DNA from: Gemmatimonadota bacterium
GTDB taxonomy: Bacteria; Gemmatimonadota; Gemmatimonadetes; Gemmatimonadales; GWC2-71-9
Direction of reading: 5' to 3'
Length of the DNA stretch: 52,671 nt
NCBI GenBank assembly: GCA_039586875.1
Contig: JBDHJO010000004.1
Span: 1-52,671 of the forward strand
Below the pieces are notes generated by a model, which made no database searches, had not been told where the DNA came from, and saw nothing but the letters and a program-made list of their open reading frames with translations. The position numbers and the translations under genes are program-made. Below are positions 22,454 through 51,019 of the stretch, piece by piece (the first letter of the stretch is position 1; each line of letters starts with the position of its first letter).

Positions 22454-22511
22454 AGACCAGTTCACAGTCGCTTCAGCGCTGAATTACCTGGTACTCAGTA
22501 GGGTTTTCCAC

Positions 22512-23195
22512 ATGCGTATTCTAGTCGTCGAGGACGACCGCAAGGTCGCCGGGTTCATCGAGATGGGCCTCCGTGAGGAAGGCTATGCTGTGGATGTGGC
22601 CAAAGACGGTGAGGAGGCTACGGTCTTCGCACACATCAATGACTACGATGCCATCCTCCTCGACCTGATGCTGCCCAAGAAGAACGGGTTGCAGGTCGCG
22701 AGCGAACTGCGCCGAGAGGGACGGAGTACGCCGATCCTCATGCTGACGGCGCGGGATGCCACCGAAGATGTCGTGCGCGGGCTCGACGCCGGTGCGGACG
22801 ACTACCTCACCAAGCCGTTCAAGTTCGACGAGTTGCTGGCCCGACTGCGGGCGTTGGTCCGCCGCGGGGGCGCTGCGCGCCTCGACCGCCTCTCCTACGG
22901 GCCGCTCGAACTGGATCGCCTCAAGCACAAGGCATGGGCGGGCGAGGCTGCACTTGATCTCACGCCACGTGAGTTCCAGTTGCTCGAGCACTTCATGCTG
23001 CACCCGGAGGACGTGGTGCGCCGGACCGAGTTGTTGGAGAAGGTCTGGGACATGCACTTCGACCCGGAGAGCAACGTTGTCGATGTCCACGTCGGCAATC
23101 TGCGCCGCAAGCTTCGTGAAGTGGGTTACGAGACGCTGATCCAGACCGTGCGTGGCGTCGGGTTCTGCTTGAAAAAGAACAACTCAGGCGGCTGA
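22512..23195 (+). CDS. OmpR-family response regulator
   Basis: The receiver has DAILLDLMLP, LMLTA and YLTKPF, followed by a winged-helix output domain. Confidence 0.95.
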   Translation: MRILVVEDDRKVAGFIEMGLREEGYAVDVAKDGEEATVFAHINDYDAILLDLMLPKKNGLQVASELRREGRSTPILMLTARDATEDVVRGLDAGADDYLTKPFKFDELLARLRALVRRGGAARLDRLSYGPLELDRLKHKAWAGEAALDLTPREFQLLEHFMLHPEDVVRRTELLEKVWDMHFDPESNVVDVHVGNLRRKLREVGYETLIQTVRGVGFCLKKNNSGG

Positions 23196-31896: not shown

Positions 31897-32126
31897 GACA
31901 GGCCTCCTCGATACAAGGACCTTCCCCGACACCGATAAAGTACACCCGGAGGACTCACCCGATACATACCGAACCGACGGTCAGCGGTCGTTGACGGTTG
32001 CAAAACTGCCCCTGATTCCCAACCTTGCTTCCCAGCAAGGCGCCCTGGTCGAAACCCGGGCGGCATCGTCCAACATCGAGGGGGGACGTCCCACCAGATA
32101 TGCGGACCCGAGCAATCGTCAGTCAC

Positions 32127-34694
32127 ATGACGCGCGGCACCGATCGCATCGTCGTAATGCTGCTCGGCTCGTTGCTCGGATCGCCGCTCGGTGCACAGGA
32201 TGCATGTCCGCGCGTCGTGAACCCGATGGTGCAGGAGGGTTGGGACCTCTATCAGCAGGGGAACGTAGACAGTGCTCACGTCCGCTTTCGCACCGCGCTC
32301 CGGCAGTGCCCGCAGCATCCGGACGCGCTGACCGGCACGGGCTACACCTTGCTGCGGTTCGATCGGATCGACGAAGCAGCCACGCTGTTCCGCGCCGCGA
32401 TCGATGCCTCGGCCAGCGCAGCCGATGCATGGTTCGGCCTGGCACTCGTCGCGCGCCGACGCGCGAATCCAAACGCGGTGCGGGAAGCGGTGCAGGAGGT
32501 CCTCCGAATCGATCCCACGCGGCGGGACGCGCGAGAGATGTTGGCCACCGTCACACCGCCGGAACGGCCTGCACTGGTGTTGCCGGACACGATGGAGATG
32601 CGCTCCCGCACGCGGGACTCCCACTTCCAGGTACTCGTCGACGGCGTTTGGCAGACGTTCTACATCAAGGGCGTCAACCTCGGTGCTGCGTTGCCCGGGC
32701 GGTTCCCGAGCGAGTTTCCCGACTCCGTTACCTACGCCGATTGGATCGAGGGCATCGCCGAGATGGGGGCCAACACCATCCGGGTCTACACCATTCACCC
32801 CCCGCACTTCTACGAGGCGTTGGCAGCATTCAATCGGTCACATCCCGAAGCACCGCTGTGGCTGATCCACGGCGTGTGGACCGGGCTCCCGCCAGATCAC
32901 GACTTCGCCGACTCGACCTGGAATGCGGAGTTCGCAGCGGAGATGTACCGGGTGGTCGACCTCCTGCACGGCCGTGCAGACATCGCCCCCCGACCGGGAC
33001 ACGCTGCCGGATTTTACACGGCTGACGTATCCCAGTGGACGCTGGGATACATCATCGGTCGCGAGTGGGAGCCGTTCGCGGTCTTCGCCTTCGACAAGGC
33101 CCACCCGGGGCTGCATTCGTGGGAGGGTACGTATCTCCACATCACCAATGGCACCGCCACCGACGTATGGTTGACGCAGACCTGCGATCGCCTGATCGCG
33201 TACGAGACCAACACGTACAACGTGCAGCGACCTGTCGCCTACACGAGCTGGCCGACCCTCGACCCGCTGTATCACGTGACGGAGGCATCCATTGCCGAGG
33301 ATATGGCGATGCGTGGGCAGTTGGCACCGGACGAGGACGAGGAGCAACACGACGAAGACACCGCAGCGATCGATCCGTCGAAGATATCGGCCACCGCGGC
33401 GTTCCCGGCCGGGTTCTTCGCGGCGTACCACGCGTATCCGTACTACCCTGACTTCATCGTCCATGAGGGCGGGTATGCCGCATATCTTCACCGGCTGAAG
33501 GCGCACCACGCCGACATGCCGGTGGTTATCGCCGAGTACGGCGTGCCGACGAGTCTGGCCGTAGCGCACATGGCACCCGAGGGATGGCACCACGGCGGAC
33601 ATTCCGAGGCGCGGATGGCCGCCATCAACGCCGAACTCACTGAGCTCCTGGCGGCAGGCGGCATGGCCGGGGGCATTCTGTTCGCCTGGATCGACGAGTG
33701 GTTCAAACGCAACTGGCTCGTCATGAATCTCGAGCGCCCACAGGAGCGCGCGCGTCTCTGGCTCAATCGCATGAACCCGGAGCAGCAATACGGCGTGATT
33801 GCCATGGAGGCAGCGCCCCGCCTTTCCGGCAGTACCCTTGGCGATCGGCTCGTGTCATGGAAAGCGGTTCCGGCGCTGTACGCCGGGCGACTGCGGGCGC
33901 TTGCGGACGAGGCCTATCTCCGACTCCTGGTCACACCGGAGCCATCGGGAGCCGACACGATCTTCATCGGTATCGATGTCGGCGACCCCGACGCCGGTTC
34001 GTTCCGATGGCCAGCCCGGCGCGGCGGACAGCTCCCCGTAGGAGTCGAGTTCGTGATTCAGGTCACGGCCACCGAGGCGCGCATGCTCGCCGATCCCCGC
34101 GCAAAGCCGTTCCGCGTGCGACGACAGCCGACGTTCCGCGGGGAACTCGAGTACATGGACGTTGCCACTCCGCCGCCGGGCATGTTTCAGGGACCCTTCG
34201 ATCAGGTACCGAACTACCCGCTCGGTGCGGCCCGCCACACAGCGGGTCGCTACGACTCGCTTCCCATTGTCACCAACCGGGTGCGCCTGGGACGTGACAG
34301 CCTCGAGCGCGCTGCATCCGGATACGACTGGGGCATCCTCCGTCAGGGGGGTGAGCCCGACGGATTGTGGGAGCGCGATCCGGAAACGGGAACCGTGGAA
34401 GTCCGCCTGCCGTGGACGCTCATCAATGTCACCGATCCCAGCAGTCGCCGCGTGCTCGCGACCCCGCCCGACGTACGGGGGTTTCAGGGCGTGCCGATCG
34501 AAGCGATCCATCTCGCGCTGGCCATGAAGACTGCCTGGGGTGAGTGGAGCGAGTACCCGCAGGGAGGGGATGCTGTCGCCCAATTCTCCTGGGCGCCATG
34601 GGAATTCCCCTCATGGCGCGCCCGACGACGGCCGGTGTTCGAAGCAATGCGGTCCGCCTTCGAGCGGCTCCCGAGTGAGCCCAAGCAACCATGA
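32127..34694 (+). CDS. periplasmic TPR plus clan GH-A-like TIM-barrel glycoside hydrolase-like protein
   Basis: The signal peptide is ...LGSPLGAQDA. N-terminal TPR repeats are followed by FYIKGVNLG...ANTIRVYT and VVIAEYGVP (putative nucleophile Glu at 33534-33536). An alternative ATG is at 32100. Confidence 0.7.
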   Translation: MTRGTDRIVVMLLGSLLGSPLGAQDACPRVVNPMVQEGWDLYQQGNVDSAHVRFRTALRQCPQHPDALTGTGYTLLRFDRIDEAATLFRAAIDASASAADAWFGLALVARRRANPNAVREAVQEVLRIDPTRRDAREMLATVTPPERPALVLPDTMEMRSRTRDSHFQVLVDGVWQTFYIKGVNLGAALPGRFPSEFPDSVTYADWIEGIAEMGANTIRVYTIHPPHFYEALAAFNRSHPEAPLWLIHGVWTGLPPDHDFADSTWNAEFAAEMYRVVDLLHGRADIAPRPGHAAGFYTADVSQWTLGYIIGREWEPFAVFAFDKAHPGLHSWEGTYLHITNGTATDVWLTQTCDRLIAYETNTYNVQRPVAYTSWPTLDPLYHVTEASIAEDMAMRGQLAPDEDEEQHDEDTAAIDPSKISATAAFPAGFFAAYHAYPYYPDFIVHEGGYAAYLHRLKAHHADMPVVIAEYGVPTSLAVAHMAPEGWHHGGHSEARMAAINAELTELLAAGGMAGGILFAWIDEWFKRNWLVMNLERPQERARLWLNRMNPEQQYGVIAMEAAPRLSGSTLGDRLVSWKAVPALYAGRLRALADEAYLRLLVTPEPSGADTIFIGIDVGDPDAGSFRWPARRGGQLPVGVEFVIQVTATEARMLADPRAKPFRVRRQPTFRGELEYMDVATPPPGMFQGPFDQVPNYPLGAARHTAGRYDSLPIVTNRVRLGRDSLERAASGYDWGILRQGGEPDGLWERDPETGTVEVRLPWTLINVTDPSSRRVLATPPDVRGFQGVPIEAIHLALAMKTAWGEWSEYPQGGDAVAQFSWAPWEFPSWRARRRPVFEAMRSAFERLPSEPKQP

Positions 34695-36337
34695 CACCGA
34701 TTCGGGTACTCGTCATGCTGGTCGTCACGCTCTCTCTGGCTGCGTCAGGGTTGCACGCACAGGACCCGGCAGACGACGCGTGGAACCGGGGCGACCATGA
34801 GACCGCCCGAGCGTTGTACGCAGAGCGCGTCGCGGTCGACTCGTCGGACGTTCGGGCGCTACATCGGCTCGCCTTGCTCTTCGCCTGGAATCGTGAGTTC
34901 ACGCCGAGCCTTGCCCTCTTCGATCGCTTGTTGGACGTCGTGCCGGACAACGTCGAGGCGCAGGTGGATCGCGCGCGCGTGCTGTCGTGGGCAAGCCGCT
35001 TCGACGAGTCGGTGGCGGCATACGCTGACGTCCTGCGGCAACGACCCACCGAGCGACAGGCACGGCTCGGATTGGCACAAGTACTCTCATGGTCGGGGCG
35101 GCTGGACTCGGCTACCGTCGTGTACGAGGATCTCCTCGCGGACGACCCCCGTGATCTCGATGCGCTCCGCGGGATTGCGCGCGCCACGGCGTGGAGCGGC
35201 GATCTCAAGCACGCGGAAATGCACTGGCGAGAGGCACTCGAGGCCGGCGGGGATGACGGGGCGACGCTGATCGGTCTGTCCCAAACGCTGCGGTGGCAGG
35301 GACGGGCTGGCGAGGCCCGCGACGCGCTTGAACGGGTACCGCTGGACCAACGGAGCATGCCTGAGTACGTCGATGAATCGCGCTGGGTGGACGTTGCCTT
35401 GTCGCCGACCGTCGCTCCGTCGGTGACCTACGAGTGGGACTCCGACGGCAACGAGATGATGACCGTGGCCCTCCGCGGGAGCCACCCCGTCACGACCCGT
35501 GCCCGGATCGAGCTTGCCGGGTACCTCAGGACGACGTGGGACGACCCCCCCGCGAACGATCCACAGTACGACGAGCGGCTCCTGTCGTGGGGCGTCACAC
35601 TCGGCGGACGCTATGTGTTCGCACCCGGCTGGGCCGTCGGTGCCGGTGCGGGCCTGTCGAGCACGAATGCCACCGACGCCTGGACCGAGCCCCTCTTCTT
35701 TGCCAATGTCTCGAGCCCGAGTCGCAACCGCGTCGCCGGGAGACTGAGCTTCACCCGTAGCGCCTTCGACCCAACGAGGGATCTGGTCGAGCGCGGAGTC
35801 ACGTTCACCGAGACCTCAGCCAGTATCACACTCCGCCCAGCTGATCGTTGGGGTGTCGATGCCGGCGTGGCGTACGGCATCTTCGACGGCAGCGAATCGA
35901 ACGGTCGTCTCCTGGGACACGCAACGGGCAACTACCGCGTCACCCCATCATGGGCAGCCCTCGCGCGGATCAGGAGCTTCGGCTTCGAGAAGAGCCGTGG
36001 GACACCTGGCACCGCGGGCTACTTCAACGACAGTTACTTCAATCCGGCGTTTTACTTCCTTGGCGAAGTGTTTCCTCGATGGCAGCCACTCCGCGGCCCG
36101 TGGCACCTGTCGGCCGAGTTCGGACTCGGGATCGAGCACATCGACATAGGTCCCGGACAGACGCCAACGACGCGCTGGCCCACGTATCGCGGTTCCGTGC
36201 GCGCGGCGTATGATCTCGCGCCCGGTCGCCAGATCAGCCTTGCAGGCATGTACACCGACAATGCCGGGCCCTTTGCCGGGAATACCCCAGGGTACAGGTA
36301 CGTCGCGGCCACCCTTGCCGGATCGTGGGCGTTTTGA
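34691..36337 (+). CDS. outer-membrane TPR plus beta-barrel exopolysaccharide export protein (PgaA/BcsC-like architecture)
   Basis: The ATG overlaps the upstream stop (ATGA). A signal peptide and about 200 aa of TPR repeats are followed by a Gly/Tyr/Ser-rich barrel ending in LAGSWAF. Confidence 0.7.
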   Translation: MTPIRVLVMLVVTLSLAASGLHAQDPADDAWNRGDHETARALYAERVAVDSSDVRALHRLALLFAWNREFTPSLALFDRLLDVVPDNVEAQVDRARVLSWASRFDESVAAYADVLRQRPTERQARLGLAQVLSWSGRLDSATVVYEDLLADDPRDLDALRGIARATAWSGDLKHAEMHWREALEAGGDDGATLIGLSQTLRWQGRAGEARDALERVPLDQRSMPEYVDESRWVDVALSPTVAPSVTYEWDSDGNEMMTVALRGSHPVTTRARIELAGYLRTTWDDPPANDPQYDERLLSWGVTLGGRYVFAPGWAVGAGAGLSSTNATDAWTEPLFFANVSSPSRNRVAGRLSFTRSAFDPTRDLVERGVTFTETSASITLRPADRWGVDAGVAYGIFDGSESNGRLLGHATGNYRVTPSWAALARIRSFGFEKSRGTPGTAGYFNDSYFNPAFYFLGEVFPRWQPLRGPWHLSAEFGLGIEHIDIGPGQTPTTRWPTYRGSVRAAYDLAPGRQISLAGMYTDNAGPFAGNTPGYRYVAATLAGSWAF

Positions 36338-36472
36338 CGGTCAGTCGGACCGTGCCGATGTGGTCGACTTTTCCATCAGTGGTTCGTATCATGTTGATTG
36401 ACATTCGGTTGCGACAATCCGACGACGGGTCGGGCGAGCGCGTTGCGCCGATCACTCCGAATCGGGACCAGC

Positions 36473-37774
36473 ATGCCGAACACTGCTGACCACGCAGTTG
36501 TCCGCATTCTCATCGTCGACGACGACCAGCACACGCTCGACGTTGCCCGACAGGCGCTGCGCGCGCCTGACCTCGAAGTCCTCGCCGCTCATTCCGCCGC
36601 CGAGGCGGAGGCCCTGCTCGAAGGTCAAACCGTCAACCTCATTCTCCTCGGTCTCGTGCTCCCCGATGCGGACGGCCGGTCGGTCCTGCAGCGCTTGGGG
36701 GAGAAAGCGCCGACGGCGACGGTGCCGGTGATGATGCTGGCTGAAGAGATCGGCCCGAACCCGAAGGAAGAGTGTATTGGCCTCGGAGTCGCGGACTTCA
36801 TTGCAAAACCTGTCGACCCCGAATCGCTCGCCAATGCCATCGCGGCCACGCTGGAGCGCGCGTCCAGCGAACACCCGAGTCCGCTGCATGACCCGGTAAC
36901 CGGGCTCGCGAATCGCGCCGCGTTCCTCGACCGTTTCATGGCAAACGTCACCGAGAGCTCGCGATCCGGCCATTACTCAGCGATGGCACTCTTGGACTTG
37001 GACGGTCTGGCGCAGATCAACTCGGCGTGGGGCAACGCCATGGGTGACCAGGTACTGACCCACACCGGACATGCGATCGCCGAGTTGATCCGTGATCACG
37101 ACATGATCGCACGATGGCGGGAAGACGAGTTTGCCGTCCTGTTGCCAGGCATGGATCTCGACACGGCCGCACGTCTCTTCGCCAAGGCGCAGGCGGTGCT
37201 CACGACGTCGCCGCTGGCAGTCTCGGACAACGTGGAGCTGACGGCGACGTTCTGTGCCGGGATCACGACCGCGGTTTCGGGGGCAAAGGTGCAGGAGGTG
37301 ATCTCGCAGGCCGAGCGCGCACTCGTGCATGCGAAGCGTCGGGGCGTGTCACACGTGGTCACCTCCGAGGAGGAGTTCCCGGACGAGCCGGCGACTGTGC
37401 TCATTGCAGAAGACGACCGCGTCTCGGCGGCGCTCGTACGTCATCGGATCGAGCGTGCCGGTCTCACGGTCATCCACCGCGAGAACGGGACCGAGGCATT
37501 GGAGGCGGCGAAGCAGCACGCTGTCGACCTGTTCATTTTGGATATTCGCATGCCACGCATGGATGGCTTCGAGCTCCTCCGGTCACTCCGTGCCCTGCCA
37601 CAGTACGCCGACACGCCGATCCTCATGCTGACGAGCTTGGGCCGCGAAGAAGACATCGTACGGGCCTTTCACCTCGGCGCGAGCGATTATGTGACGAAGC
37701 CCTTCTCACCCGTCGAGTTGCTGGCGCGCGTACAACGACTGCTGCGGTCGCACGCCTCAACCCGCCGCCTCTAA
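36473..37774 (+). CDS. pseudo-receiver / degenerate GGDEF (REDEF, I-site RDHD intact) / receiver protein
   Basis: REC1 has Gly in place of the acceptor Asp (LILLGLVLP, codon 36650-36652). In the GGDEF domain, RDHD lies at 37091-37102 and REDEF at 37118-37132. REC2 is canonical (FILDIRMP, LMLTS, YVTKPF). Confidence 0.85.
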   Translation: MPNTADHAVVRILIVDDDQHTLDVARQALRAPDLEVLAAHSAAEAEALLEGQTVNLILLGLVLPDADGRSVLQRLGEKAPTATVPVMMLAEEIGPNPKEECIGLGVADFIAKPVDPESLANAIAATLERASSEHPSPLHDPVTGLANRAAFLDRFMANVTESSRSGHYSAMALLDLDGLAQINSAWGNAMGDQVLTHTGHAIAELIRDHDMIARWREDEFAVLLPGMDLDTAARLFAKAQAVLTTSPLAVSDNVELTATFCAGITTAVSGAKVQEVISQAERALVHAKRRGVSHVVTSEEEFPDEPATVLIAEDDRVSAALVRHRIERAGLTVIHRENGTEALEAAKQHAVDLFILDIRMPRMDGFELLRSLRALPQYADTPILMLTSLGREEDIVRAFHLGASDYVTKPFSPVELLARVQRLLRSHASTRRL

Positions 37775-37780
37775 CAGAGG

Positions 37781-38848
37781 GTGTCCGTGACACCCGAGGT
37801 GCAGGAATTCGGCAGCCGAGTCCTCCTGCTCCTGATCATCGGCATCGCGCTCTTGGTCCTGCTGGCGATCGGGTTCGCCATCTCCGTCGTCATGCTCCGC
37901 AGGAAAAACGATCGCACCCGCGTTCACTGGCAGCGTCTCGAGAGCAAGTGGGACGAGGTTCTGCTGGACGTGCTCGCCGGCGCCCGGCCAAAAGACGCAT
38001 TTTGGGAGATCGTCGCACCTGGAGAGCAGCTGTACGCGGTCAACTATGTGTTGCGGTACATCAAGCGTGTCGAGGGGGAGGAGCGGGTCCGTCTGCAGGA
38101 GCTCGGGCGCCCGTATCTCGAGCCCGTCATTCCTCGCATGCAGCGTGGCGATCCGGAGCGCCGGGCGCGCGCGGTGCAAACCGTCGGTGAGATCGGCTTG
38201 CCCGAACATGCCGAGTTGGTGATCCGAGCGCTCGACGATCCGTCTCCGCTGGTCGCGATGGTCGCTGCCCGGTCGCTGGCGCGGAAGGAGCACCCAGAGT
38301 TCATCCGCGAGGTTCTCAAGCGGCTTCACCGCTTTTCGACGTGGAGCCGCAACTTCCTCTCGTCGATGCTGGCGGCGGTGGGTGCCGATGCCATGCCCAT
38401 TCTGCGAGAGGTGTACGGAGATCCGCACCACCCAACGCAAGTGCGTGCCATCGTCGCACAGGCGCTGGGCTACCTCCACGACTTCGGGGCTGCCGATGTG
38501 GCGGCCCGAGTCCTGGAGACGGAGGAGGATCGTGAGATACTCGCGGCATCACTCCGGTTGATCAGCGGTGTCGGTCAACCCGAGCACCTGCCCGCAGTGC
38601 GCCGGTTGGTGACATCTTCGGACTTCGTGGTCCGGGCCGCGGCCGTCAGCGCCATCGGAAACATTGGCCGGCCGGACGACATGCCGCTCTTGCACACGGC
38701 CTGTGAGGATGATTCGCGCTGGGTCGCAATCCATGCCGCGCGGGCGCTCCGCGACGCGGGCCATGTCGACAGCCTCCAGAAGCTCGCCGCTTCGGGACGC
38801 GCGCGGGCCACCCTCGCGATGCAGGTCCTCTCCGAGGTGGACCTGTGA
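37781..38848 (+). CDS. membrane-anchored HEAT-repeat protein
   Basis: One N-terminal TM helix (LLLLIIGIALLVLLAIGFAISVV) is followed by repeated HEAT/PBS-lyase-like units (RARAVQTVGEIG, VRAAAVSAIGNIG, IHAARALRDAG). Possible starts are GTG 37781 or GTG 37787. The stop overlaps the GT2 start. Confidence 0.7.
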   Translation: MSVTPEVQEFGSRVLLLLIIGIALLVLLAIGFAISVVMLRRKNDRTRVHWQRLESKWDEVLLDVLAGARPKDAFWEIVAPGEQLYAVNYVLRYIKRVEGEERVRLQELGRPYLEPVIPRMQRGDPERRARAVQTVGEIGLPEHAELVIRALDDPSPLVAMVAARSLARKEHPEFIREVLKRLHRFSTWSRNFLSSMLAAVGADAMPILREVYGDPHHPTQVRAIVAQALGYLHDFGAADVAARVLETEEDREILAASLRLISGVGQPEHLPAVRRLVTSSDFVVRAAAVSAIGNIGRPDDMPLLHTACEDDSRWVAIHAARALRDAGHVDSLQKLAASGRARATLAMQVLSEVDL

Positions 38849-40296
38849 CCGGCTTCGCCATCCTCCTCACCGGCCTCACGCTCTTCAACGCCGTCGTGCT
38901 CGTGTATTTCGTCGTGCTGAACACGGTGTACCTGACCACCAGCATCATCGCGTTCCGCGACATCCGGCGGTACGTCCGGCGGCTCAAGTCCCTGGATTTC
39001 GGGGACCTTCTGTCGTCCGAGGGCATGCCACCGGTCACCGTGATCGCGCCGGCGTTCAACGAGGAGCTCACCTGTGTCGAGTCGGTCAGCTCTCTCCTCA
39101 TGCTCGAATACCCGCAGTACGAGGTCGTGGTCGTGAACGACGGCTCGACCGACGGGACGCTCACACAGCTGCAAAAGGCGTTCGATCTCGTTCCCGCAGC
39201 ACGCCTTCCGACGGCAGAGCTCGCAACGGCACCGGTGCGGCGAGCATACCAGAGCCAGCGGCGTCCGAACCTGTGGGTGATCGACAAGGAAAACGGTGGG
39301 AAATCCGATGCGCTCAACGCCGGTATCAACCTGTGCGTGACGCCGCTCTTCTGCGCCATGGACGCCGACAGCATCCTCGAGCGCGACGCACTCATGCGCA
39401 TCGTCCGTCCGTTTCTCGAAGATGCCAACACGATTGCGGCCGGTGGCGTGGTCCGTATCGCGAACGGCTGTACAATCAAAGACGGCAACGTGACGGGTGT
39501 GCGGTTTCCCCGTAATCTGTGGGCGCGCTTTCAGGTGTTGGAATACCTCCGCTCGTTTCTTGCCGGTCGCATGGGATGGGCCGTGCTGGATGCAACGCTG
39601 ATCATCTCCGGGGCGTTCGGCGTCTTTCGACGGAACACCGTCGTCGCGGCCGGCGGCTACGCGTCGGAGTACACGAGCGGCAGCACCGTGGGCGAGGACA
39701 TGGAGCTGGTTGTCCGACTGCACCGGCACTGCCGCGAGCGGAAGATCCCATATCACATCCGGTTCGTCCCCGACCCCGTGGCCTGGACGGAATGCCCCGA
39801 GTCGCTGCGCACGCTCGCACGGCAACGCGACCGCTGGCAGCGCGGCATGGCCGAGAGCCTGCTCCGCCACCGCACGATGCTGTTCAACCGCCGGTATGGT
39901 CGCATTGGCTTCCTCGCCTACCCGTACTTCCTGTTTCTCGAAACGCTTGGTTTGCCGATCGAGATCTTGGGGTACTTCGCGTTTGCCGTGACGGTGGTGT
40001 TGGGTTTGGCCGAACCCGTATACGTCGTGGGCTTCTTCATGGCGGCCTTTGCCTTCGGCATGGTCCTGTCGATCGCGGCAGTCGGCTTGGAGGAGTTGGG
40101 GTTCCGCCGGTACCCGAAGGTCGGGGATCTCGTCCGCTTGTTCGTGTTGGGTGCAGCCGAGAACTTCGGCTATCGGCAGCTTATTGCGTTCTGGCGGCTT
40201 CACGGTCTGATTTCTGCTGTACGAGGCAAGAAACACTGGGGCACAATGGAGCGACAGGGGTTTCGGGACGATCGCATCAAGAAGGACGCGGCATGA
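38845..40296 (+). CDS. processive family-2 glycosyltransferase (PgaC/cellulose-synthase-like polysaccharide synthase)
   Basis: The GTG overlaps the upstream stop (GTGA). The protein has an N-terminal TM helix, VVVNDGSTD, GGKSDALNAG, MDADS, GEDMEL, QRDRW (39823-39837) and several C-terminal TM helices. Confidence 0.9.
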   Translation: MTGFAILLTGLTLFNAVVLVYFVVLNTVYLTTSIIAFRDIRRYVRRLKSLDFGDLLSSEGMPPVTVIAPAFNEELTCVESVSSLLMLEYPQYEVVVVNDGSTDGTLTQLQKAFDLVPAARLPTAELATAPVRRAYQSQRRPNLWVIDKENGGKSDALNAGINLCVTPLFCAMDADSILERDALMRIVRPFLEDANTIAAGGVVRIANGCTIKDGNVTGVRFPRNLWARFQVLEYLRSFLAGRMGWAVLDATLIISGAFGVFRRNTVVAAGGYASEYTSGSTVGEDMELVVRLHRHCRERKIPYHIRFVPDPVAWTECPESLRTLARQRDRWQRGMAESLLRHRTMLFNRRYGRIGFLAYPYFLFLETLGLPIEILGYFAFAVTVVLGLAEPVYVVGFFMAAFAFGMVLSIAAVGLEELGFRRYPKVGDLVRLFVLGAAENFGYRQLIAFWRLHGLISAVRGKKHWGTMERQGFRDDRIKKDAA

Positions 40297-42227
40297 CCGA
40301 TCCGTCGATGCGACCGGTCGATTGGGACGTTCTTGCACGGATCAGCCACGATCTGCGCACGCCGATGAACGGCATCATCGGCCTCGTCGAGCTCCTCCAT
40401 CACACCGAATTGGATCCGGAGCAGCGTCGCTCCGTCGAGCTCATCAAGATCTCGGCCGAATCGTTGATGGGGCTCGTGAACGACATTCTCGACCTGTCGA
40501 GATTGCGAAGCGATCGTGTGGAGCTCGAAGACATCGTCTTCGACGTCGGTACGTTGGTCGATTCTACCGTCCGGCTCTTACGCGTCCGGGCCTTTGAGCA
40601 GAACATCGATTTGACGTACGAGATCGACGCCGACGTTCCGCGGATGGTTCGTGGTGACCCCAGTCGCCTGCGCCAGATTCTCACGAATCTCATCGGCAAC
40701 GCCATCAAGTTCACCCGCCAGGGCAGCGTCGATCTGTCCGTCTCCTGCCGGAGCGACAGCCGTTGTGCAGGCGGGATTCACTTCGTGGTTCGCGACACCG
40801 GGATCGGGATTCCGGCCGACCGGTTGGACGCAATCTTCGAGGAGTACTCTCAAGCGTCGATCAGTACGGCGCGCGAGTACGGCGGCACCGGGCTTGGCCT
40901 TGCGATTGCACGCCACCTTGCCCACCTGATGGGGGGCGCTATCTCGGTGAGGAGCACCCTCGGTGTCGGCAGCGCGTTCGCTGTGGACGTCCAACTCACG
41001 CCGGTCGCGGCGGACGAGCCTCTGGAAGTTGGAGGTGACCATACGACCCTGGAGACCGCGCGGGTGCTCGTTATCGACGATCACGCGGAGTCTCGAGGGG
41101 CATCGGTCGCGGTTCTCCAGAATGTCGGCGTCGACGTGCGGGGGATGAGGCGAGGCGACGACGGTGTGGACGAGTTACGCCGTGGGTTCGCCGACAGCAG
41201 CCCGTACCAGCTCGTGATCCTCGACGCATGGGTGGGAGGCGAGGACGGCTTTGACCTCGCAGCGACGATTCTTTCGGACGATCACCTGCGCGACACCCGC
41301 GTCATACTGTTGACGAACTCCGGGCGCAGGGGTGACGGCCAACGATGCCGTGATATCGGGATTCATGGCTACCTCACCAGGCCCGTGGAACCTGACGATC
41401 TCGTGACTGCCACGGCACGCGTGCTTGCGGGCCGCGACGACGACCTGGTCACGCGCCACTTCCTCGAGGAGCGACGGCGGCGGCTTCGCATCCTCCTGGC
41501 GGATGACAACGAGGTCAATCGACAGGTCGCCGTGGCAATCCTCGAGAAGCGTGGTCATACGGTCGACAGTGTCGTGGACGGTACGGAGGCGGTCGACGCG
41601 GCCGCGTCGGCGGTTTACGACGTGGCGTTGCTCGACGTCGAAATGCCGGAGATGGACGGACCGTCCGCTGCGGGCAAGCTACGCACGTTACCCAGCGCAG
41701 CCCGGACACAGATCGTGGGAATGACGGCCCACGCGAACTTCGCCAACGAAGCCACGTTCCGCGCTGCTGGCATGGACGCGTGTATCACCAAACCTTTCAA
41801 GCCACGGGACCTCGTGCGCGTCGTCGAATCGATCGCTGCCCCCGCGTCGCCGGGCCGGACGAGCGGTCACGTCGACCGCGTCGTCGATCCCGTCAATCTC
41901 ACCGAATTCCGCCGGATGATGCGCGAGGCCGGCATCGAGGGTACGGCAAACAAGATCATCACCGTGTTCTTGGAAGATGCGCCGCAGCGCATGGCGGCCC
42001 TGCATGAGGCCACGAACGCGCGGAATGGGCAGGACATTCGTATGGCCGCCCACGCCTTCAAGTCCGCCGCCGCGACCATTCGCGCAGAGAGTCTCGCGGA
42101 GTTGTTGAACCACGTGGAAAAGGCGGGCGAGCTCGACGACATCGACAAGGCCGCCGAGCTCCTCCCGCAGGTGCATGCCGAAGCGGACAGCGTGCAGGCG
42201 TTTCTCGAGCCCCTGCGCACCGACTGA
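40293..42227 (+). CDS. cytoplasmic hybrid histidine kinase: HisKA-HATPase-REC-REC-HPt, with no sensor domain
   Basis: The ATG overlaps the GT2 stop (ATGA). The H-box SHDLRTPMNGI begins at residue 18. The G-box is GTGLGLAIARHLA. There are two receivers and an HPt (AHAFKSAAA). Confidence 0.9.
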   Translation: MTDPSMRPVDWDVLARISHDLRTPMNGIIGLVELLHHTELDPEQRRSVELIKISAESLMGLVNDILDLSRLRSDRVELEDIVFDVGTLVDSTVRLLRVRAFEQNIDLTYEIDADVPRMVRGDPSRLRQILTNLIGNAIKFTRQGSVDLSVSCRSDSRCAGGIHFVVRDTGIGIPADRLDAIFEEYSQASISTAREYGGTGLGLAIARHLAHLMGGAISVRSTLGVGSAFAVDVQLTPVAADEPLEVGGDHTTLETARVLVIDDHAESRGASVAVLQNVGVDVRGMRRGDDGVDELRRGFADSSPYQLVILDAWVGGEDGFDLAATILSDDHLRDTRVILLTNSGRRGDGQRCRDIGIHGYLTRPVEPDDLVTATARVLAGRDDDLVTRHFLEERRRRLRILLADDNEVNRQVAVAILEKRGHTVDSVVDGTEAVDAAASAVYDVALLDVEMPEMDGPSAAGKLRTLPSAARTQIVGMTAHANFANEATFRAAGMDACITKPFKPRDLVRVVESIAAPASPGRTSGHVDRVVDPVNLTEFRRMMREAGIEGTANKIITVFLEDAPQRMAALHEATNARNGQDIRMAAHAFKSAAATIRAESLAELLNHVEKAGELDDIDKAAELLPQVHAEADSVQAFLEPLRTD

Positions 42228-42252: not shown

Positions 42253-43092
42253 TCAGGCCGCCGTCCCCACCTCCTGGACGTGCACATCCCGCTGCGGGAA
42301 CGGGATGCTGCAGCCCGCACGCTCGAGTTCTTCCTTCATGGTCCGCATCAGGTGAAATCGCAGGTCCCAGTAGTCGGCAGCACGGCACCATGGACGGACC
42401 ACCAGGTTCACGGACGAATCACCCAGTTCACTCACCGCAATCGTCGGCGCAGGATCCTTGAGCACGCGCTGGTCGGCATCCAGGATTGCCTGCAATGTTC
42501 GCATGGCGACAGCGATGTCGTCGTCATAGGAGATCCCGGCGACGAGATCGATCCGCCTGGTATCGTTGGCGGCGTAGTTCTTGATCGTGGTCCCCCAGAC
42601 GGCGCTGTTCGGGATGACGATGCCGACGTTGTCCGGCGTGTTGAGGCGCGTGGTGAAGATGTTGATCTCCTGCACCGCGCCCGCGGTGCCCGCGGCCTCG
42701 ATGAAGTCACCGACCCGGAACGGCCGGAACACGAGCAGCATTACCCCGGACGCGAAGTTGCCGAGCGTCCCCTGTAGCGCCAGTCCCACCGCGAGCCCCG
42801 CAGCACCCAACACCGCAATGACCGACGTTGTCTGTACACCCACCATCCCGAGAGCGGCGATGATGACGAACGCCATCAGTGCGTAGTACAGCAGGCCGGT
42901 CATGAACGGCACGAGCGTGGCATCGAGCTCGCTCCGATCGAGCGCGCGCCGGAGCGCGCGACGCGCCCACCCGGCAACGATGCGGCCGATCAGGAAGACG
43001 GCGAGTGCCCCGAGGAGCTTGAGGCCCCACTGAGCAACGAGCGTCTGCACCGTCGCAACGAATCCGTTGATGTCGAAGTTCACTGAACGCAC
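42253..43092 (-). CDS. small-conductance mechanosensitive channel (MscS family)
   Basis: Three TM helices are followed by an MscS beta domain (FRVGDFIE...G.V..I....T.L). An alternative GTG at 43083 lies 8 nt after AGGAG. Confidence 0.9.
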   Translation of the reverse strand: MRSVNFDINGFVATVQTLVAQWGLKLLGALAVFLIGRIVAGWARRALRRALDRSELDATLVPFMTGLLYYALMAFVIIAALGMVGVQTTSVIAVLGAAGLAVGLALQGTLGNFASGVMLLVFRPFRVGDFIEAAGTAGAVQEINIFTTRLNTPDNVGIVIPNSAVWGTTIKNYAANDTRRIDLVAGISYDDDIAVAMRTLQAILDADQRVLKDPAPTIAVSELGDSSVNLVVRPWCRAADYWDLRFHLMRTMKEELERAGCSIPFPQRDVHVQEVGTAA

Positions 43093-43562: not shown

Positions 43563-44819
43563 CTACTCGGGCACGCGCGCAACCACGGCCGATGTGTCCG
43601 CCGGACCCCGCCGAAGCGTGACAGCGACGCGGTCGCCGCGGGTCAGTGTCCACGTTGCAGGATCGAGCGTGGATGGAGTCACGAGATGCAGATAGTGACC
43701 GGTGGCATCGAGGGTATCGAGCGCCCTCACGTCTTGAAGATCTCCGATTTCATCCAGGACGAGGCCGGATCGCGCCACCGGATCTTCGTAGCGAAGTGCT
43801 ACATCAAGGTCCATCGGTGCTCCCCCTGGCACGACGACAACTCCCCCCCGGACCAGGAGATCCGCCGGCACCGACTCGTTGAACGGCAGCGTCTCGTACG
43901 GCTCGATGTCGATATCTCCGAACCGCTCGGCTGCAATCGCCTCGAGTGCGGTGAGAATGAGACGGGCGTTGAGTCGCCGCAGCTTCTGCTTCTCGGGATC
44001 GCCCGGCAGGGCCCCGCTCTCGATGAGGATGGTACTGGTACCCCACTGCTGGATGAGATCCCCGAACGCCCGCGGATTGAAGGTGTCATCGTACTTCGCC
44101 ACCCGACCCGGGATTGCGTCGGCGAGCCCGCGCGCCAAGATCGACGCCAGGGCGCGTGCGCGACTGCGCACCGGGCCGTAGGACCGTGCAGAGTCGGCTG
44201 CTGGGGCCAACAACGCAATTGCAACCTGTGCACCGTCAGCTCCTGCCGTGTTGCGAGCGCTCTGATCGTGGAGGTTGAACCCGAACGCCGGTTGTAGGCT
44301 ATCCCGCAACGCCTTGAGAACCCGTCCCTCGGGAGTGGCCAACCGCCTGGCGTCGCGATTGATATCCACCCCCACGGCATTGTGGCGACGGAAGACTTCC
44401 GCCCCGTCGGGGTTCAGCATTGGCAGCATGACGACTGTGAGTCGATCACGGATCGTCACCCGGAGCCCGTCGTCGGACTGCGCGAAGAAGCGCACGATGT
44501 CGGCGAGCGCCATCGTCGCCGTGGACTCGTCCCCGTGCATCTGCGACCACAGTAAGACGTGCGTCGGGCCGGTGCCGAAGGTCACTGCATGGATGGCGCG
44601 GCCCTGTACAGAGTGGCCGACGCTCGTGACCGTGACATCACCGACGCCATCGAACGGCAGCAACGCATTCCACAGGTGCGTGTGGGTGAAACGGCGCTCC
44701 GTGAACGACGCGAGGCGGTATGCGTCTACAACGCTGTCAGGTACGAGGGCACAACACGACGGTGCGTGGGGACTCGTCGCAACGATTGCCGGCAGGAGGA
44801 GAGACGCAATGGTAAGCAT
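43563..44819 (-). CDS. M14 family zinc carboxypeptidase
   Basis: Starting from MLTIASLLL. It has the zinc motif WSQMHGDEST, NPDG and DINRD. The listed 730-aa ORF extends antisense into the mutarotase gene. Confidence 0.85.
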   Translation of the reverse strand: MLTIASLLLPAIVATSPHAPSCCALVPDSVVDAYRLASFTERRFTHTHLWNALLPFDGVGDVTVTSVGHSVQGRAIHAVTFGTGPTHVLLWSQMHGDESTATMALADIVRFFAQSDDGLRVTIRDRLTVVMLPMLNPDGAEVFRRHNAVGVDINRDARRLATPEGRVLKALRDSLQPAFGFNLHDQSARNTAGADGAQVAIALLAPAADSARSYGPVRSRARALASILARGLADAIPGRVAKYDDTFNPRAFGDLIQQWGTSTILIESGALPGDPEKQKLRRLNARLILTALEAIAAERFGDIDIEPYETLPFNESVPADLLVRGGVVVVPGGAPMDLDVALRYEDPVARSGLVLDEIGDLQDVRALDTLDATGHYLHLVTPSTLDPATWTLTRGDRVAVTLRRGPADTSAVVARVPE

Positions 44820-44996
44820 CGGCGCTTCGAACACGTGGAGGGTTGCAGGCTGTCGGTGACGTGCACAGCCTGCAACGTGAGGTCCCGGCCCCGGACGAGC
44901 AAGCCCACCACACGGACCGCCTATGGTCTCTTGGTGGCCAATCGTCCACGTTGCAGGGTACAGAGGCCTCCCGACGGGGAGAAAGGAGTGTCCCAC

Positions 44997-46058
44997 ATGG
45001 ACGTCAGACAGTTCGGGTACGGGGCGTTGCTCGATGGAACGCCCGTCGATGCCTTCACGGTTCGCAATACAAACGGGATGGCATTCACCGCCATAACGTA
45101 CGGAGGGATCGTCGTCTCGATCGAGACCCCCGATCGTCGAGGAGCGACGGCCGATGTCGTACTCGGGTTCGGCGATCTGGCCGGATACCTGGGCGACCAT
45201 CCGTACGTCGGAGCCATCGTCGGTCGCTACGCCAACCGGATCGCCAAGGGGATGTTCACACTCGACGGCACCGCCTACACGCTCGCAACGAACAATCCCC
45301 CGAACCACCTGCACGGCGGGAACCAGGGCTTCGATGCCGTCATATGGAATGCCGAACCGATCCGCGGGGTGGACAGCTCGGGTGTGACCCTGCGCTACAC
45401 AAGCCCAGACGGGGACGAGGGATACCCGGGCAATCTCGCGGTGACCGTGGCCTACACGCTCACGAACGACAATGCGCTGACCATGGACTATCATGCGCAC
45501 ACCGACGCACCGACGCCGGTGAACCTCACCCAACACACGTACTTCAACCTGTCCGGTGACCCGACCCGCGATGTCTTGGATCACGTCGTTTGCATCGATG
45601 CCGATCGATTCACGCCCGTGGACAGCACACTCGTTCCGACCGGCGCCCTGGCGTCGGTTGCCGGCACCCCGTTCGATTTCACGACACCACATTCGATCGG
45701 AGCGCGGATCGCGGACGACCACGAACAGCTGCAATACGGCAGCGGTTACGACCACAACTTCGTGCTGGGGATAGGCAAGACACCACTCGAGCGTGCGGCG
45801 TTCATCGAGGAACCGTCATCCGGTCGCACCCTAGAGGTCTCCACCACCGAGCCTGGTGTGCAGTTCTACACCGGCAACTTCCTGGATGGGAGCCTCATCG
45901 GTAAGGGTGGTCGGCCCTACCCACGACGCTCCGGCTTCTGCCTCGAAACGCAACACTTCCCGGACTCCCCGAACCACCCGGCCTTCCCGAGTACTATCCT
46001 CCGGCCCGGTGAAGAATACCGCTCTCGCACGGTGTGGCGCTTCGGGATCACCCCATAA
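44997..46058 (+). CDS. aldose 1-epimerase (galactose mutarotase)
   Basis: The ATG lies 8 nt after AAAGGAG. GRYANRIA, NHLHGG, YDHNF and FCLETQHFPDSPN blocks are present. Confidence 0.9.
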   Translation: MDVRQFGYGALLDGTPVDAFTVRNTNGMAFTAITYGGIVVSIETPDRRGATADVVLGFGDLAGYLGDHPYVGAIVGRYANRIAKGMFTLDGTAYTLATNNPPNHLHGGNQGFDAVIWNAEPIRGVDSSGVTLRYTSPDGDEGYPGNLAVTVAYTLTNDNALTMDYHAHTDAPTPVNLTQHTYFNLSGDPTRDVLDHVVCIDADRFTPVDSTLVPTGALASVAGTPFDFTTPHSIGARIADDHEQLQYGSGYDHNFVLGIGKTPLERAAFIEEPSSGRTLEVSTTEPGVQFYTGNFLDGSLIGKGGRPYPRRSGFCLETQHFPDSPNHPAFPSTILRPGEEYRSRTVWRFGITP

Positions 46059-48559: not shown

Positions 48560-50959
48560 TCATCGTACGGCGTCCACGCTCGTTTTGACATCTCCGGCGA
48601 GCGGTGCCGTGGTCATCGGAAGCGCCGTCGGGAACTGATCCCCGAGTTCCCTCCGCAGGTTCATCTTGCGCATCACGGCCTCGAACTCGGGATCGCCATG
48701 AAATGCGTCGTAGCCCTCGCGCGCGACGACCCACGCCATCCACGCATGCGCCGGCTCGTAGTCCATCCAACGTAGCGCCTGTTCACGGTTGCCAAGCGCT
48801 GTGTGGATCCGTGCGAGTGCGTGGGCATTCCACGCACTGGGTGGTTGTGCTTCAAACTGCGCCAGAATAGGTCGCGCTTCGTCAGACCGCCCAGCGCGTA
48901 CATAGGTGATTGCGAGCGCGGACGACCATCGCGGGAAGACGTCGGCCAACTTCTGATGCACCTCAATGGCTTCTTCGTGCTGCCCCAGATGCGACAACGT
49001 TTCGCCCAGGACGTAGTGCGCGATCACGCCCGGGCTGTACCGCTCCACATTCTCCCGCGCCAGCGGGAGCGCACGCTCGTACTGCCCTGAACCAAAGTGC
49101 ACGGCGGGCAACCACGTCGTGTGGAGCGGGGTCAGTGGATCCAGTTCCTGTGCGCGGCGATGTTCAGCGAGCGCCTCCTCGATGCGACCGAACACCACCA
49201 GGTACCAGGCGTAGTGGTAGTGGTTCATCGCCAGGCTGGGATTGAGCTCGTTGGCTCGCCGGAACGCCCGCTCCGCCCCGGCCCAGTCACGCTCGGCGTA
49301 GGTCTTATAGTCGGCCAGCGCCGCCCACGCCTCGGCGAGTGTTGAGTCGAGGCGGAGCGCGCGCTCCGCCGCAGCCCGAGTTCTCGGCCACGCGTCGTCC
49401 GGCGGGTCGAACCCGTGACCGAGTGTCGCGTAGGCGAGAGCCAAGCCGGCGTACGCGAGGGGATCGGCGGGGTTGCGCTCGACGGCTTCGGCGAAGTACT
49501 CGATGGCGGTGTCGGCTGCCGCGCGTGTGGTGCGGTTGTTCAGCACGTGCATCCCGCGGAGATAGGCCTCGTACACATCGGGATTCACGGGCCGACTCTC
49601 ACTGAGGGCCGCCTCGTCCTCAGCAGTAAGCTGCCATTCGATCTTCTCGGCAATGGCACGCGCAAACCCTCGGTAAAGCGCCACGACATTCGACAGCACG
49701 CCGTCGAACGAAGCCGCCCACAGTTGCTCCCCTCCGTCGTCGTAGAGCCGTGCGGTGATCTCGAGACTATCGCCATCCCTGAAGACGGAGCCTTCGAGGA
49801 CACCGTCCACCCGCAGCTGGCTGGCGATGTCCGGGAGCGGCTGATCAGTGTCTCGGAACTGTGCCATCGTTGCCCGAGCCGTAACCGACAACCCGAGTTG
49901 GCCGAGCTCGGCGATCAGGGCCTCGTGCACCCCCTCCACCAGGTATGCCTGCTCGGGATCGTTCGTGAGATCGACGAGCGGCAGCACGGCAAGGCGTTCG
50001 ACCGTCGCATGGGTGGCGAGCGTGGCGAGACTCCATACGCCCAGCGCAACGACCGCGGTCACTGCCGCGCCGGCCGCCGCCCAGCGCCGGCGTCCACGAT
50101 GTCGTACCCGGGCCACGACGGTCCCGGTCGTCAAGGCTGCCGAAAACTCGTTCACTGTCGCGAAGCGGTCGTTCGGGTCCTTCGCCAGTGCCCGCTCCAC
50201 CGCCCGCTCCACGAACAAGGGGATCGCCGGGTCGCTCGTCCGGAGATGGGGAACCGGGTCCGTCGAGTGCTTCGCCAGCAGTTCCTGAGGCGTTGTCCCC
50301 TCGAAAGGCGGATGGCCACCGACCATCTCGTACACCACGCAGCCCAGGGCATACACATCTGTGCGCGAGTCGACCGCTGCGGCACCGCTCCATTGCTCGG
50401 GACTCATGTACGCAGGCGTGCCCACGGCGAGCCCCGTGCCCGTCAGGCGCTCGCCGCCCGCCGCCTCCACGGCCCGTGCGATCCCGAAGTCGGCTACAAT
50501 CGCCTGATCGCCGGCCAGCATGATGTTCTCGGGTTTTATGTCCCGGTGAACGACGCCACGCTCGTGCGCATAGGCCAAGGCCGACGACACCTGGTCGGTC
50601 AGCTTGACCGTCTCCGCAACGGTGAGCTTCCCGGCCCGCACCAACCGATCGCGAAGGGATTCGCCCTCGACGTAGGGCATCATGTAGTAGAGGAGCCCGT
50701 CGGCTTCCCCGGAATCGAAGAGCGGCAGGATATGGGGATGGGAAAGCTGCGCCGCAATCTCGATCTCGCGCACAAACCGGTCGGCGCCGAGGCTCGCAGC
50801 AAGCGCCGGACGCAGTACCTTGATCGCGACGCGCCGCCGATGTTTCACATCCTGGGCCAGGTACACGGTGGCCATACCCCCGCTGCCCAGTTCCCGCTCG
50901 ACGGTGTACCGGTCTCCGAGGGCTTCAGCCAATGCTCGCTGTTGGGGCACCGCGGTCAT
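48560..50959 (-). CDS. Ser/Thr protein kinase with one TM helix, a periplasmic-type domain and TPR repeats
   Basis: GSGGMATVY, HRDIKPENIM, DFGIA and SPEQ are present. The TM helix is AAAGAAVTAVVALGVWSLA. C-terminal TPR repeats follow. The ATG at 50959 is preferred (AGGGGA RBS). An alternative start is at 50998. Confidence 0.9.
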   Translation of the reverse strand: MTAVPQQRALAEALGDRYTVERELGSGGMATVYLAQDVKHRRRVAIKVLRPALAASLGADRFVREIEIAAQLSHPHILPLFDSGEADGLLYYMMPYVEGESLRDRLVRAGKLTVAETVKLTDQVSSALAYAHERGVVHRDIKPENIMLAGDQAIVADFGIARAVEAAGGERLTGTGLAVGTPAYMSPEQWSGAAAVDSRTDVYALGCVVYEMVGGHPPFEGTTPQELLAKHSTDPVPHLRTSDPAIPLFVERAVERALAKDPNDRFATVNEFSAALTTGTVVARVRHRGRRRWAAAGAAVTAVVALGVWSLATLATHATVERLAVLPLVDLTNDPEQAYLVEGVHEALIAELGQLGLSVTARATMAQFRDTDQPLPDIASQLRVDGVLEGSVFRDGDSLEITARLYDDGGEQLWAASFDGVLSNVVALYRGFARAIAEKIEWQLTAEDEAALSESRPVNPDVYEAYLRGMHVLNNRTTRAAADTAIEYFAEAVERNPADPLAYAGLALAYATLGHGFDPPDDAWPRTRAAAERALRLDSTLAEAWAALADYKTYAERDWAGAERAFRRANELNPSLAMNHYHYAWYLVVFGRIEEALAEHRRAQELDPLTPLHTTWLPAVHFGSGQYERALPLARENVERYSPGVIAHYVLGETLSHLGQHEEAIEVHQKLADVFPRWSSALAITYVRAGRSDEARPILAQFEAQPPSAWNAHALARIHTALGNREQALRWMDYEPAHAWMAWVVAREGYDAFHGDPEFEAVMRKMNLRRELGDQFPTALPMTTAPLAGDVKTSVDAVR

Positions 50960-51019
50960 GGTCGTTCCCCTACCCACCCTTTCGGCATGTCGATCCACGC
51001 TCGCTGTTGCGCCGCACCT

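Follow-up and report, generated by a model that had tools for sequence, protein, structure and literature searches.

A putative phosphorelay regulator with a degenerate GGDEF domain in a conserved candidate exopolysaccharide synthase cassette of Gemmatimonadota

Gene and domain organization

The gene analyzed in this study lies in a 52,671-nucleotide stretch of DNA (the window) from a Gemmatimonadota bacterium (GenBank assembly GCA_039586875.1, contig JBDHJO010000004.1) and encodes a protein, hereafter the target, in which a pseudo-receiver (REC1), a degenerate GGDEF domain and a true receiver (REC2) follow one another (Table 1). It belongs to a cassette of six co-directional genes, which encode, in order, an 889-amino acid (aa) protein with TPR repeats, a TPR protein with weak similarity to outer-membrane barrels, the target, a HEAT-repeat protein with a transmembrane helix (TM-HEAT), a GT2 synthase and a hybrid histidine kinase. 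Gene ends overlap by 4 nucleotides (nt) at three junctions of the cassette.

The ATG at 36473 was favored as the start codon over an upstream TTG at 36398 because six near metagenomic homologues (75-99% identity) are also 433 aa long. Comparison with Pfam, which an earlier reading of the window (the original prediction) had proposed as a check, identified Response_reg twice in the target (172.9 bits) and PF00990 GGDEF at residues 139-291 (110.5 bits, against a cut-off of 23.8), and every residue and coordinate given in that prediction was found to be right. The AlphaFold2 model of the target, computed with 68 homologues as input, had a predicted local distance difference test (pLDDT) score of 89 and a predicted template modeling (pTM) score of 0.79. 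Its GGDEF part matched solved structures of GGDEF domains bound to cyclic di-GMP (c-di-GMP) with a root-mean-square deviation of 1.6-2.1 Å (Foldseek), and both the score above the gathering cut-off and the fold of the model place the domain in the GGDEF family.

The top match among PDB sequences was PleD (phmmer), with REC1 and GGDEF of the target aligned to D2 and DGC of PleD (residues 154-450) and REC2 aligned to D1. PleD numbering was mapped onto a family alignment made with mafft, and residue roles were taken from the PleD-(p)ppGpp structure paper, (p)ppGpp being guanosine tetra- or pentaphosphate. A sequencing or assembly artefact was ruled out, as dozens of independent metagenome proteins, which form a clade of about 40, share these substitutions.

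Lost and retained sites in the target

In the GGDEF domain, RDHD-MIARW-REDEF of the target aligned with RAID-LPCRY-GGEEF of PleD. The same five-residue spacer thus separates the RxxD motif of the primary inhibitory site (I-site) from the signature, the register that had been predicted, and RxxD five residues upstream of a degenerate signature is the feature that marks receptors of the PelD/PssE/PopA kind. Both signature glycines are lost, so that the signature is neither GG[DE]EF nor A/SGDEF, and the residues for the beta-phosphate (PleD K332) and the gamma-phosphate (PleD R446) are replaced by A180 and V292. The expectation, drawn from the change of GG to RE, that c-di-GMP synthesis is unlikely was thereby supported. 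The target keeps the Mg2+ ligands D175 (PleD D327) and D218 (PleD E370), the guanine ligands N183 (PleD N335) and D192 (PleD D344), and also R214 (PleD R366), E219, F220 and K288 (PleD K442). According to the PleD-(p)ppGpp structure paper, (p)ppGpp and guanosine triphosphate (GTP) bind PleD via D344 and N335 for the guanine and D327 and E370 for Mg2+. The active site (A-site) had been called dead in the original prediction, a description that fits its catalysis but not its pocket, where each Mg2+ and guanine ligand is retained by 83-100% of the target's clade. The A-site therefore appears cyclase-dead, yet not decayed, and its pocket may still bind a guanine nucleotide.

When REC1 was searched alone against PDB it aligned with PleD D1, and Lys112 lay opposite PleD Lys105. 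The same alignment placed Gly60 opposite the phospho-acceptor Asp53 and Ala90 opposite Thr83, in agreement with the claim that both functional positions had been replaced and that REC1 should not be phosphorylated at the canonical position. The acceptor Asp and the Thr/Ser expected of a receiver (PF00072) are thus missing, and the fold, the acidic pair and Lys112 are retained. The acceptor position is G, N, S or A in all 36 clade members having it and Asp in 65/65 GG-intact and other relatives; the Thr/Ser position is A, L, S or F in the clade and S or T in 34 of the 36 GG-intact relatives. D65 or D67 (LPDADG) was considered as a substitute acceptor and rejected, as both are invariant also in relatives with the canonical Asp and align to PleD M57/D60, not to D53. 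The alignment placed no different Asp at the acceptor position, an outcome that the original prediction had named as its own refutation, and left the I-site/GGDEF register unshifted.

REC2 carries E313/D314/D315, D357, T387 and K409, the complete set of receiver residues, and is fully canonical, as had been supposed. D357 is present in 42/42 members of the clade. Taken together, the residue states indicate that the target is very probably dead as a cyclase and not phosphorylatable at REC1.

Conservation within the family

About 400 relatives were retrieved by a database search, almost all of them gemmatimonadotal, and the best 120 were divided into three classes. Class A, the clade of the target (37 full-length sequences plus fragments), has neither GG nor the REC1 acceptor Asp; class B (36 sequences) has GG[DE]EF and the REC1 Asp; class C (31 sequences) lacks GG and retains the REC1 Asp. 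GG combined with a lost REC1 Asp was found in 0 of 36 proteins. In a neighbor-joining tree, class A formed one clade nested among GG-intact, Asp-intact relatives, and GG was lost many times elsewhere in the family.

The degenerate signature of class A is itself conserved, W-[R/E]-[E/D/A]-D-E-[F/Y], with Q, G and L also seen at the variable positions, and the two subclades differ at position 216, one having R and the other E. The equivalents of PleD D327 (42/42), D329 (41/42), N335 (35/42), D344 (39/42), R366 (41/42) and E370 (as D, 40/42) are retained in class A, as are the Arg (35/42) and the Asp (36/42) of RxxD, and the positions of K332 and R446 are occupied by A/S/E and P/V. R207 and D210 of the target rank in the top quartile of conserved positions. 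Class C showed decay at these sites, with the RxxD Arg in 12/29, the RxxD Asp in 11/29 and D327 in 13/29. Retention of RxxD in about 85% of the clade and of the Mg2+ and guanine ligands in 83-100% favors retained nucleotide binding.

Mean pairwise identities of REC1, GGDEF and REC2 were 0.47, 0.46 and 0.72 in class A, 0.47, 0.42 and 0.53 in class B, and 0.43, 0.28 and 0.51 in class C. Since the GGDEF identity of class A is close to that of the active cyclases of class B and above that of class C, the pseudo-cyclase of the clade appears to be under purifying selection comparable to that on active cyclases; REC2 appears unusually constrained.

About one quarter of the target's clade has a MarR DNA-binding domain fused N-terminally to the pseudo-receiver, degenerate GGDEF and receiver, within the same cassette (L083:10001-11953 and L084:1081-3033; also P0007-P0010, P0017, P0021, P0023, P0027, P0034, P0040 and P0079). 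These fused regulators are possible phospho- or nucleotide-responsive transcription factors. In Omnitrophota, an independently degenerate HPt-REC-GGDEF-REC protein (L090:6541-8061) has the signature GEKEL and keeps RKTD and the REC1 Asp.

The cassette across phyla

The GT2 was used as the query for a scan of contigs; the target protein as query matched receiver domains in general and recovered no orthologues. GT2 orthologues 60-79% identical to that of the window were found in Gemmatimonadota, Neomarinimicrobiota/Fidelibacterota, Omnitrophota and one Planctomycetota metagenome-assembled genome. At 59 of 80 species-representative GT2 loci, the end of a full-length REC-GGDEF-REC homologue lies about 1.1 kb upstream of the GT2 and the HEAT gene occupies the interval, and many of the remaining 21 loci are on contigs cut off at their ends. 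The same six genes surround the clade members P0002, P0015 and the MarR-fused P0008. The GG-intact P0057 and P0038 are encoded directly upstream of HEAT and GT2; P0073 is not.

HPt and kinase genes occur in nearly all cassettes, in two arrangements. One has an upstream HPt, a large kinase and an HPt-REC-GGDEF-REC protein; the other, that of the target's clade, has a hybrid kinase-HPt gene downstream of the GT2, with kinase orthologues of the same size. At one locus, beside a clade member, the GT2 itself carries a C-terminal HPt and there is no kinase gene (L088:10001-11830, P0136; also P0137). This HPt is 41% identical to that of the hybrid kinase in the window, and the arrangement resembles the outcome of an in-frame deletion that removed the kinase core. 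The fusion ties the phosphorelay physically to the synthase.

The A-site of the regulator is intact in 20 of the 59 cassettes, 18 of them with RxxD, and degenerate in the other 39, of which 10 have RxxD and 29 do not. The REC1 Asp is lost in seven cassettes, all with a degenerate A-site. Because the REC2 Asp is present in 60/60 species-level cassettes and RxxD is absent from 29 of the 39 degenerate ones, phosphorylation of REC2 appears to be the core input, a change of emphasis relative to the original prediction. To judge from these counts, a phosphorylatable REC2 is evidently the one feature indispensable to the family, and c-di-GMP synthesis and I-site binding seem dispensable in many lineages.

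A YaiO-type outer-membrane barrel, often with TPRs, follows the GT2 in GG-intact or other-phylum cassettes (L085:15777-16574, L089:11407-12669 and L090:11434-12765), where it stands in for the TPR gene and the porin gene that are separate in the target's clade. One clade locus has a second GT2 paralogue of 468 aa just upstream of the TPR genes (L082:619-2025). Our literature search, which was incomplete in coverage, found no paper on the REC-GGDEF-REC architecture or the HEAT-GT2 cassette; control of synthases by degenerate GGDEF domains is already known, and the cassette is apparently uncharacterized.

Neighboring genes in the window

Table 1. Features of the cassette in the window, with the evidence for each
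Feature	Position (nt)	Strand	Basis
TPR protein with C-terminal region of about 700 aa without family assignment	32025-34694	+	Pfam TPR only
TPR protein with C-terminal part weakly outer-membrane beta-barrel-like, candidate export porin	34691-36337	+	Pfam TPR; weak matches
Target gene, REC1 (pseudo)-GGDEF (degenerate)-REC2, 433 aa	36473-37774	+	Open reading frame, translation, Pfam, homologues
REC1 pseudo-receiver, residues 10-125, keeps acidic pocket D16/D17/D18 and K112	36500-36847	+	Alignment to PleD D1 and D2, clade tallies
Gly60 codon at REC1 phospho-acceptor position	36650-36652	+	Opposite PleD Asp53
Ala90 codon at REC1 Thr/Ser position	36740-36742	+	Opposite PleD Thr83
Degenerate GGDEF domain, residues 139-296	36887-37360	+	Pfam PF00990, Foldseek
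RDHD, residues 207-210, in register of RxxD primary I-site	37091-37102	+	Aligned to PleD R359-D362
REDEF, residues 216-220, replacing GG[DE]EF	37118-37132	+	Aligned to PleD GGEEF 368-372
REC2 canonical receiver, residues 307-425; acceptor Asp357 at 37541-37543	37391-37747	+	Best Pfam REC stretch 309-421, aligns to PleD D1
HEAT-repeat protein, one N-terminal hydrophobic helix, 355 aa	37781-38848	+	Pfam HEAT_2; conserved neighbor
Membrane GT2 synthase, PgaC/IcaA-like, 483 aa	38845-40296	+	Pfam GT2 families
Hybrid histidine kinase HisKA-HATPase-REC-REC-HPt, 644 aa; HPt at about 41892-42197	40293-42227	+	Pfam, translation

Among the parts of an exopolysaccharide system in the window, the GT2, the TPR protein and the regulator are clear, and the barrel rests on weak matches. 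The candidate porin, conserved in the clade loci, gave weak PgaA/BcsC TPR, OMP_b-brl and Autotransporter matches. Orthologues of the 889-aa TPR open reading frame (ORF) adjoin the porin gene and are 824-865 aa long, and its true start is for that reason probably downstream of 32025. An impression of a clan GH-A hydrolase in its C-terminal region (VIAEYG, FAWIDEW) was not confirmed, the permissive Pfam match to GH72 being non-significant (E-value 0.28) and the single-sequence AlphaFold2 model having a pLDDT of 34.

The HEAT gene always lies between regulator and synthase, and its orthologues are about 350 aa long in several phyla; a search for fusions of c-di-GMP domains to this protein family found none. 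The GT2 scored 125.8 bits against TIGR03937, the equivalog of the poly-N-acetylglucosamine synthase PgaC/IcaA, below the cut-off of 422.3. Searches against PDB sequences returned only generic GT2 N-terminal matches for the GT2, designed TPR proteins for the 889-aa ORF and designed HEAT proteins for the HEAT protein. In the hybrid kinase, which has its H-box at residue 19, no sensor domain or membrane segment was detected. Its first receiver has Arg instead of the conserved Lys (YLTRP).

Directly after the cassette lies a gene for an MscS-type mechanosensitive channel (42253-43092, minus strand), and L081 and L082 have it at the corresponding position. Three consecutive genes at 21206-24583, for a GAF-histidine kinase, a response regulator of the OmpR type and another histidine kinase, seem unrelated to the cassette. 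The minus strand encodes at 48560-50998 an 812-aa protein in which a Ser/Thr protein kinase is joined to TPR repeats. Three further long ORFs, of a kind typical of DNA with 65% GC, are best read as spurious or over-extended: a 587-aa ORF antisense across the GT2 (38575-40338, minus strand), a 902-aa ORF extending the kinase upstream into the GT2 (39519-42227, plus strand) and a 730-aa ORF (43563-45755, minus strand) whose M14 peptidase orthologue in L081 has 407 aa.

Proposed function and alternatives

We propose, with confidence that is evenly balanced, that the target acts as the terminal response regulator, and probably as a regulatory subunit, in a conserved exopolysaccharide machine made of the TM-HEAT protein, the GT2 synthase, the TPR protein and the TPR-porin, and that it receives both phosphorelay and c-di-GMP input. 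The ancestor may have been an (HPt-)REC-GGDEF-REC diguanylate cyclase acting locally on the synthase. The original prediction had contrasted the order of the domains with that of PleD; the order does differ, and it is better read as a degenerate derivative of such a local cyclase than as a rearranged PleD. In the clade of the target the cyclase would have become catalytically dead through the change of GG to RE and the loss of K332 and R446, REC1 would have lost its acceptor Asp and become an adaptor like D2 of PleD, and the HPt would have moved to the sensor-less hybrid kinase encoded after the synthase.

From the observed sequence, residue states, synteny, clade conservation and HPt-GT2 fusion we infer the phosphotransfer partners, the contact with HEAT and GT2, the binding of c-di-GMP and the sign of regulation. 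The hybrid kinase would autophosphorylate, and the phosphoryl group would pass from the kinase His to a kinase REC Asp, to the HPt His and on to Asp357 of REC2. Phosphorylated REC2 would repack on the pseudo-REC1 and the pseudo-cyclase, and this change would pass on to the GT2 and to the HEAT scaffold in the cytoplasm, turning polymerization on or off; phosphorylation would most likely turn it on, and c-di-GMP binding may do so too. RxxD and K238 probably still bind c-di-GMP made by other cyclases, which would tune or gate the same switch. We regard it as likely that REC2 is the end point of the relay and that the target controls the synthase, and we see the case for functional c-di-GMP binding by the target as evenly poised; sensing of this messenger is plausibly a trait of particular lineages, and the clade of the target has apparently kept it. 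The original prediction of one receptor that would join phosphotransfer with c-di-GMP binding to control the adjacent synthase is supported by the conserved HPt kinase, TM-HEAT and GT2 neighbors, by the HPt-GT2 fusion, by RxxD retention in most of the clade and by the precedent of PssE; it does not extend to the 29 degenerate regulators that lack RxxD.

Several observations weigh against this combined proposal. Each step of the mechanism is deduced from sequence and synteny, and the conservation counts are not phylogenetically independent. RxxD is missing from those 29 regulators and was lost at least four or five times even within the clade, where conservation of the A-site remnants exceeds that of RxxD, a hint of a different or additional ligand. 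The third I-site residue, PleD R390, is Lys238 in the target (K or R in 31/42 clade members, with K also commonest in GG-intact relatives), and the secondary I-site arginines, PleD R178 and R313, are Leu and Glu. The MarR-fused clade members, furthermore, point to a transcriptional output in some lineages.

The repeated losses of RxxD, the Lys at the R390 position and the missing secondary arginines would also fit a regulator controlled by phosphorylation only, in which the pseudo-cyclase is a docking or dimerization module without meaningful c-di-GMP binding and RxxD is kept by structural or historical constraint. We consider this possible, if doubtful. It agrees further with REC2 being by far the most conserved domain and with the degenerate cassettes without RxxD keeping the REC2 Asp and the gene order. 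It agrees less well with the identity of the clade's pseudo-cyclase, which is as high as that of active cyclases and far above that of other degenerate domains, and with the high conservation rank of R207 and D210; we know of no structural role for RxxD in GGDEF domains that lack feedback inhibition, which also counts against it. A sensor of guanine nucleotides is improbable. Here the remodeled A-site would bind GTP, guanosine diphosphate or (p)ppGpp, as does the GTP-binding GEDEF domain of Caulobacter PdeA, and would inform the synthase of nucleotide or energy status, whether or not the I-site binds as well. The equivalents of D327, D329, N335, D344, R366, E370 and E371 are conserved in the clade above the level of RxxD, and GTP and (p)ppGpp contact PleD through exactly these guanine and Mg2+ ligands; loss of K332, R446 and the Gly-Gly turn is nevertheless contrary to tight triphosphate binding, and the alternation of R and E at position 216 between subclades makes no consistent new chemistry evident.

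The MarR fusions raise the further alternative that the target mainly co-regulates transcription of the cassette rather than acting on the synthase protein. This appears quite unlikely, as Pfam found no DNA-binding domain in the target, and the HPt-GT2 fusion and the strict regulator-HEAT-GT2 adjacency across phyla point to a complex at the protein level. Residual weak diguanylate cyclase activity despite REDEF is barely credible. In its favor, the target retains R366 along with the metal and guanine ligands, and non-canonical AGDEF and SGDEF enzymes are reportedly active (PMC3974145). In the target, however, charged residues stand in place of both glycines, and neither K332 nor R446 is present. 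The active variants known to us alter only the first Gly, to Ala or Ser, which also speaks against such activity.

The proposal of a regulator with phosphorelay and c-di-GMP input can be extended, although the extension is a long shot, to a gate with three inputs in an undescribed multi-phylum machine: a dedicated His-Asp-His-Asp relay ending at REC2, c-di-GMP at the I-site and GTP or (p)ppGpp at the A-site pocket. If that were true, the cassettes would form a natural series in which one subunit goes from local cyclase to receptor to bare scaffold. One orthologous subunit is in any case found in three states according to lineage, an intact cyclase, a cyclase-dead form with an I-site and a form degenerate at both, with the REC2 acceptor constant. 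The cassette thus offers a natural experiment on the passage from second-messenger source to receptor to scaffold, and it bears on the merging of two-component and c-di-GMP signaling at a synthase. It is widespread in Gemmatimonadota, Marinimicrobia-type lineages and Omnitrophota, groups that occur abundantly in soils and oceans and have seldom been cultured.

Comparison with known systems

PleD of Caulobacter crescentus (REC-pseudoREC-GGDEF), the best PDB match, shares the I-site register with the target. It differs in its domain order, as the target has REC-GGDEF-REC with the true receiver C-terminal, in its signature, which is REDEF in the target, and in its secondary I-site arginines in D2 and DGC. 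The target scored 224.7 bits against the PleD family NF007135 (cut-off 474) and is not a member.

The cassette resembles PgaABCD and IcaADBC in having a membrane GT2 related to PgaC/IcaA, a candidate porin with TPRs, a gene for a small membrane partner and a regulator of its own. It differs from them in a GT2 far under the PgaC cut-off and in a partner that is TM-HEAT, not PgaD/IcaD, and no deacetylase was detected in the cassette. SgmT of Myxococcus xanthus is a hybrid kinase whose C-terminal, degenerate GGDEF domain is an I-site receptor, and it reportedly also joins two-component signaling with I-site c-di-GMP binding, to control the extracellular matrix (PMC3509222). Unlike in the cassette of the target, the kinase of the SgmT system itself carries the receptor domain and acts through a DNA-binding regulator.

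PssE of Listeria monocytogenes has a degenerate GGDEF domain with RxxD five residues upstream, is encoded in a GT2 operon, binds c-di-GMP with a dissociation constant of 0.79 uM and is essential for the polysaccharide. PelD of Pseudomonas and YdaK of Bacillus are reportedly also degenerate-GGDEF I-site receptors encoded in exopolysaccharide operons. The target shares with these three the degenerate signature, RxxD exactly five residues upstream and a gene beside a GT2 synthase. They are anchored in the membrane and have neither receivers nor a phosphorelay, whereas the target has a pseudo-receiver, a true receiver and a hybrid kinase; to our knowledge, none of the established PelD/PssE-type synthase regulators is wired into a phosphorelay through a receiver domain of its own. 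Unlike PssE, whose signature is DKDDA, the target keeps the metal and guanine ligands. PopA of Caulobacter, reportedly a c-di-GMP-binding regulator on a PleD-like scaffold, and CbrR of Campylobacter are REC-REC-GGDEF response regulators whose GGDEF domain has nucleotide binding, and not (mainly) c-di-GMP synthesis, as its role. They differ from the target in domain order and in their outputs, a proteolysis adaptor and flagellar regulation, and neither lies in a synthase cassette. By analogy with these systems, the target would work most like PssE, PelD and YdaK, as a regulator beside its synthase, and like PopA and CbrR, as a response regulator with a GGDEF domain turned to nucleotide binding.

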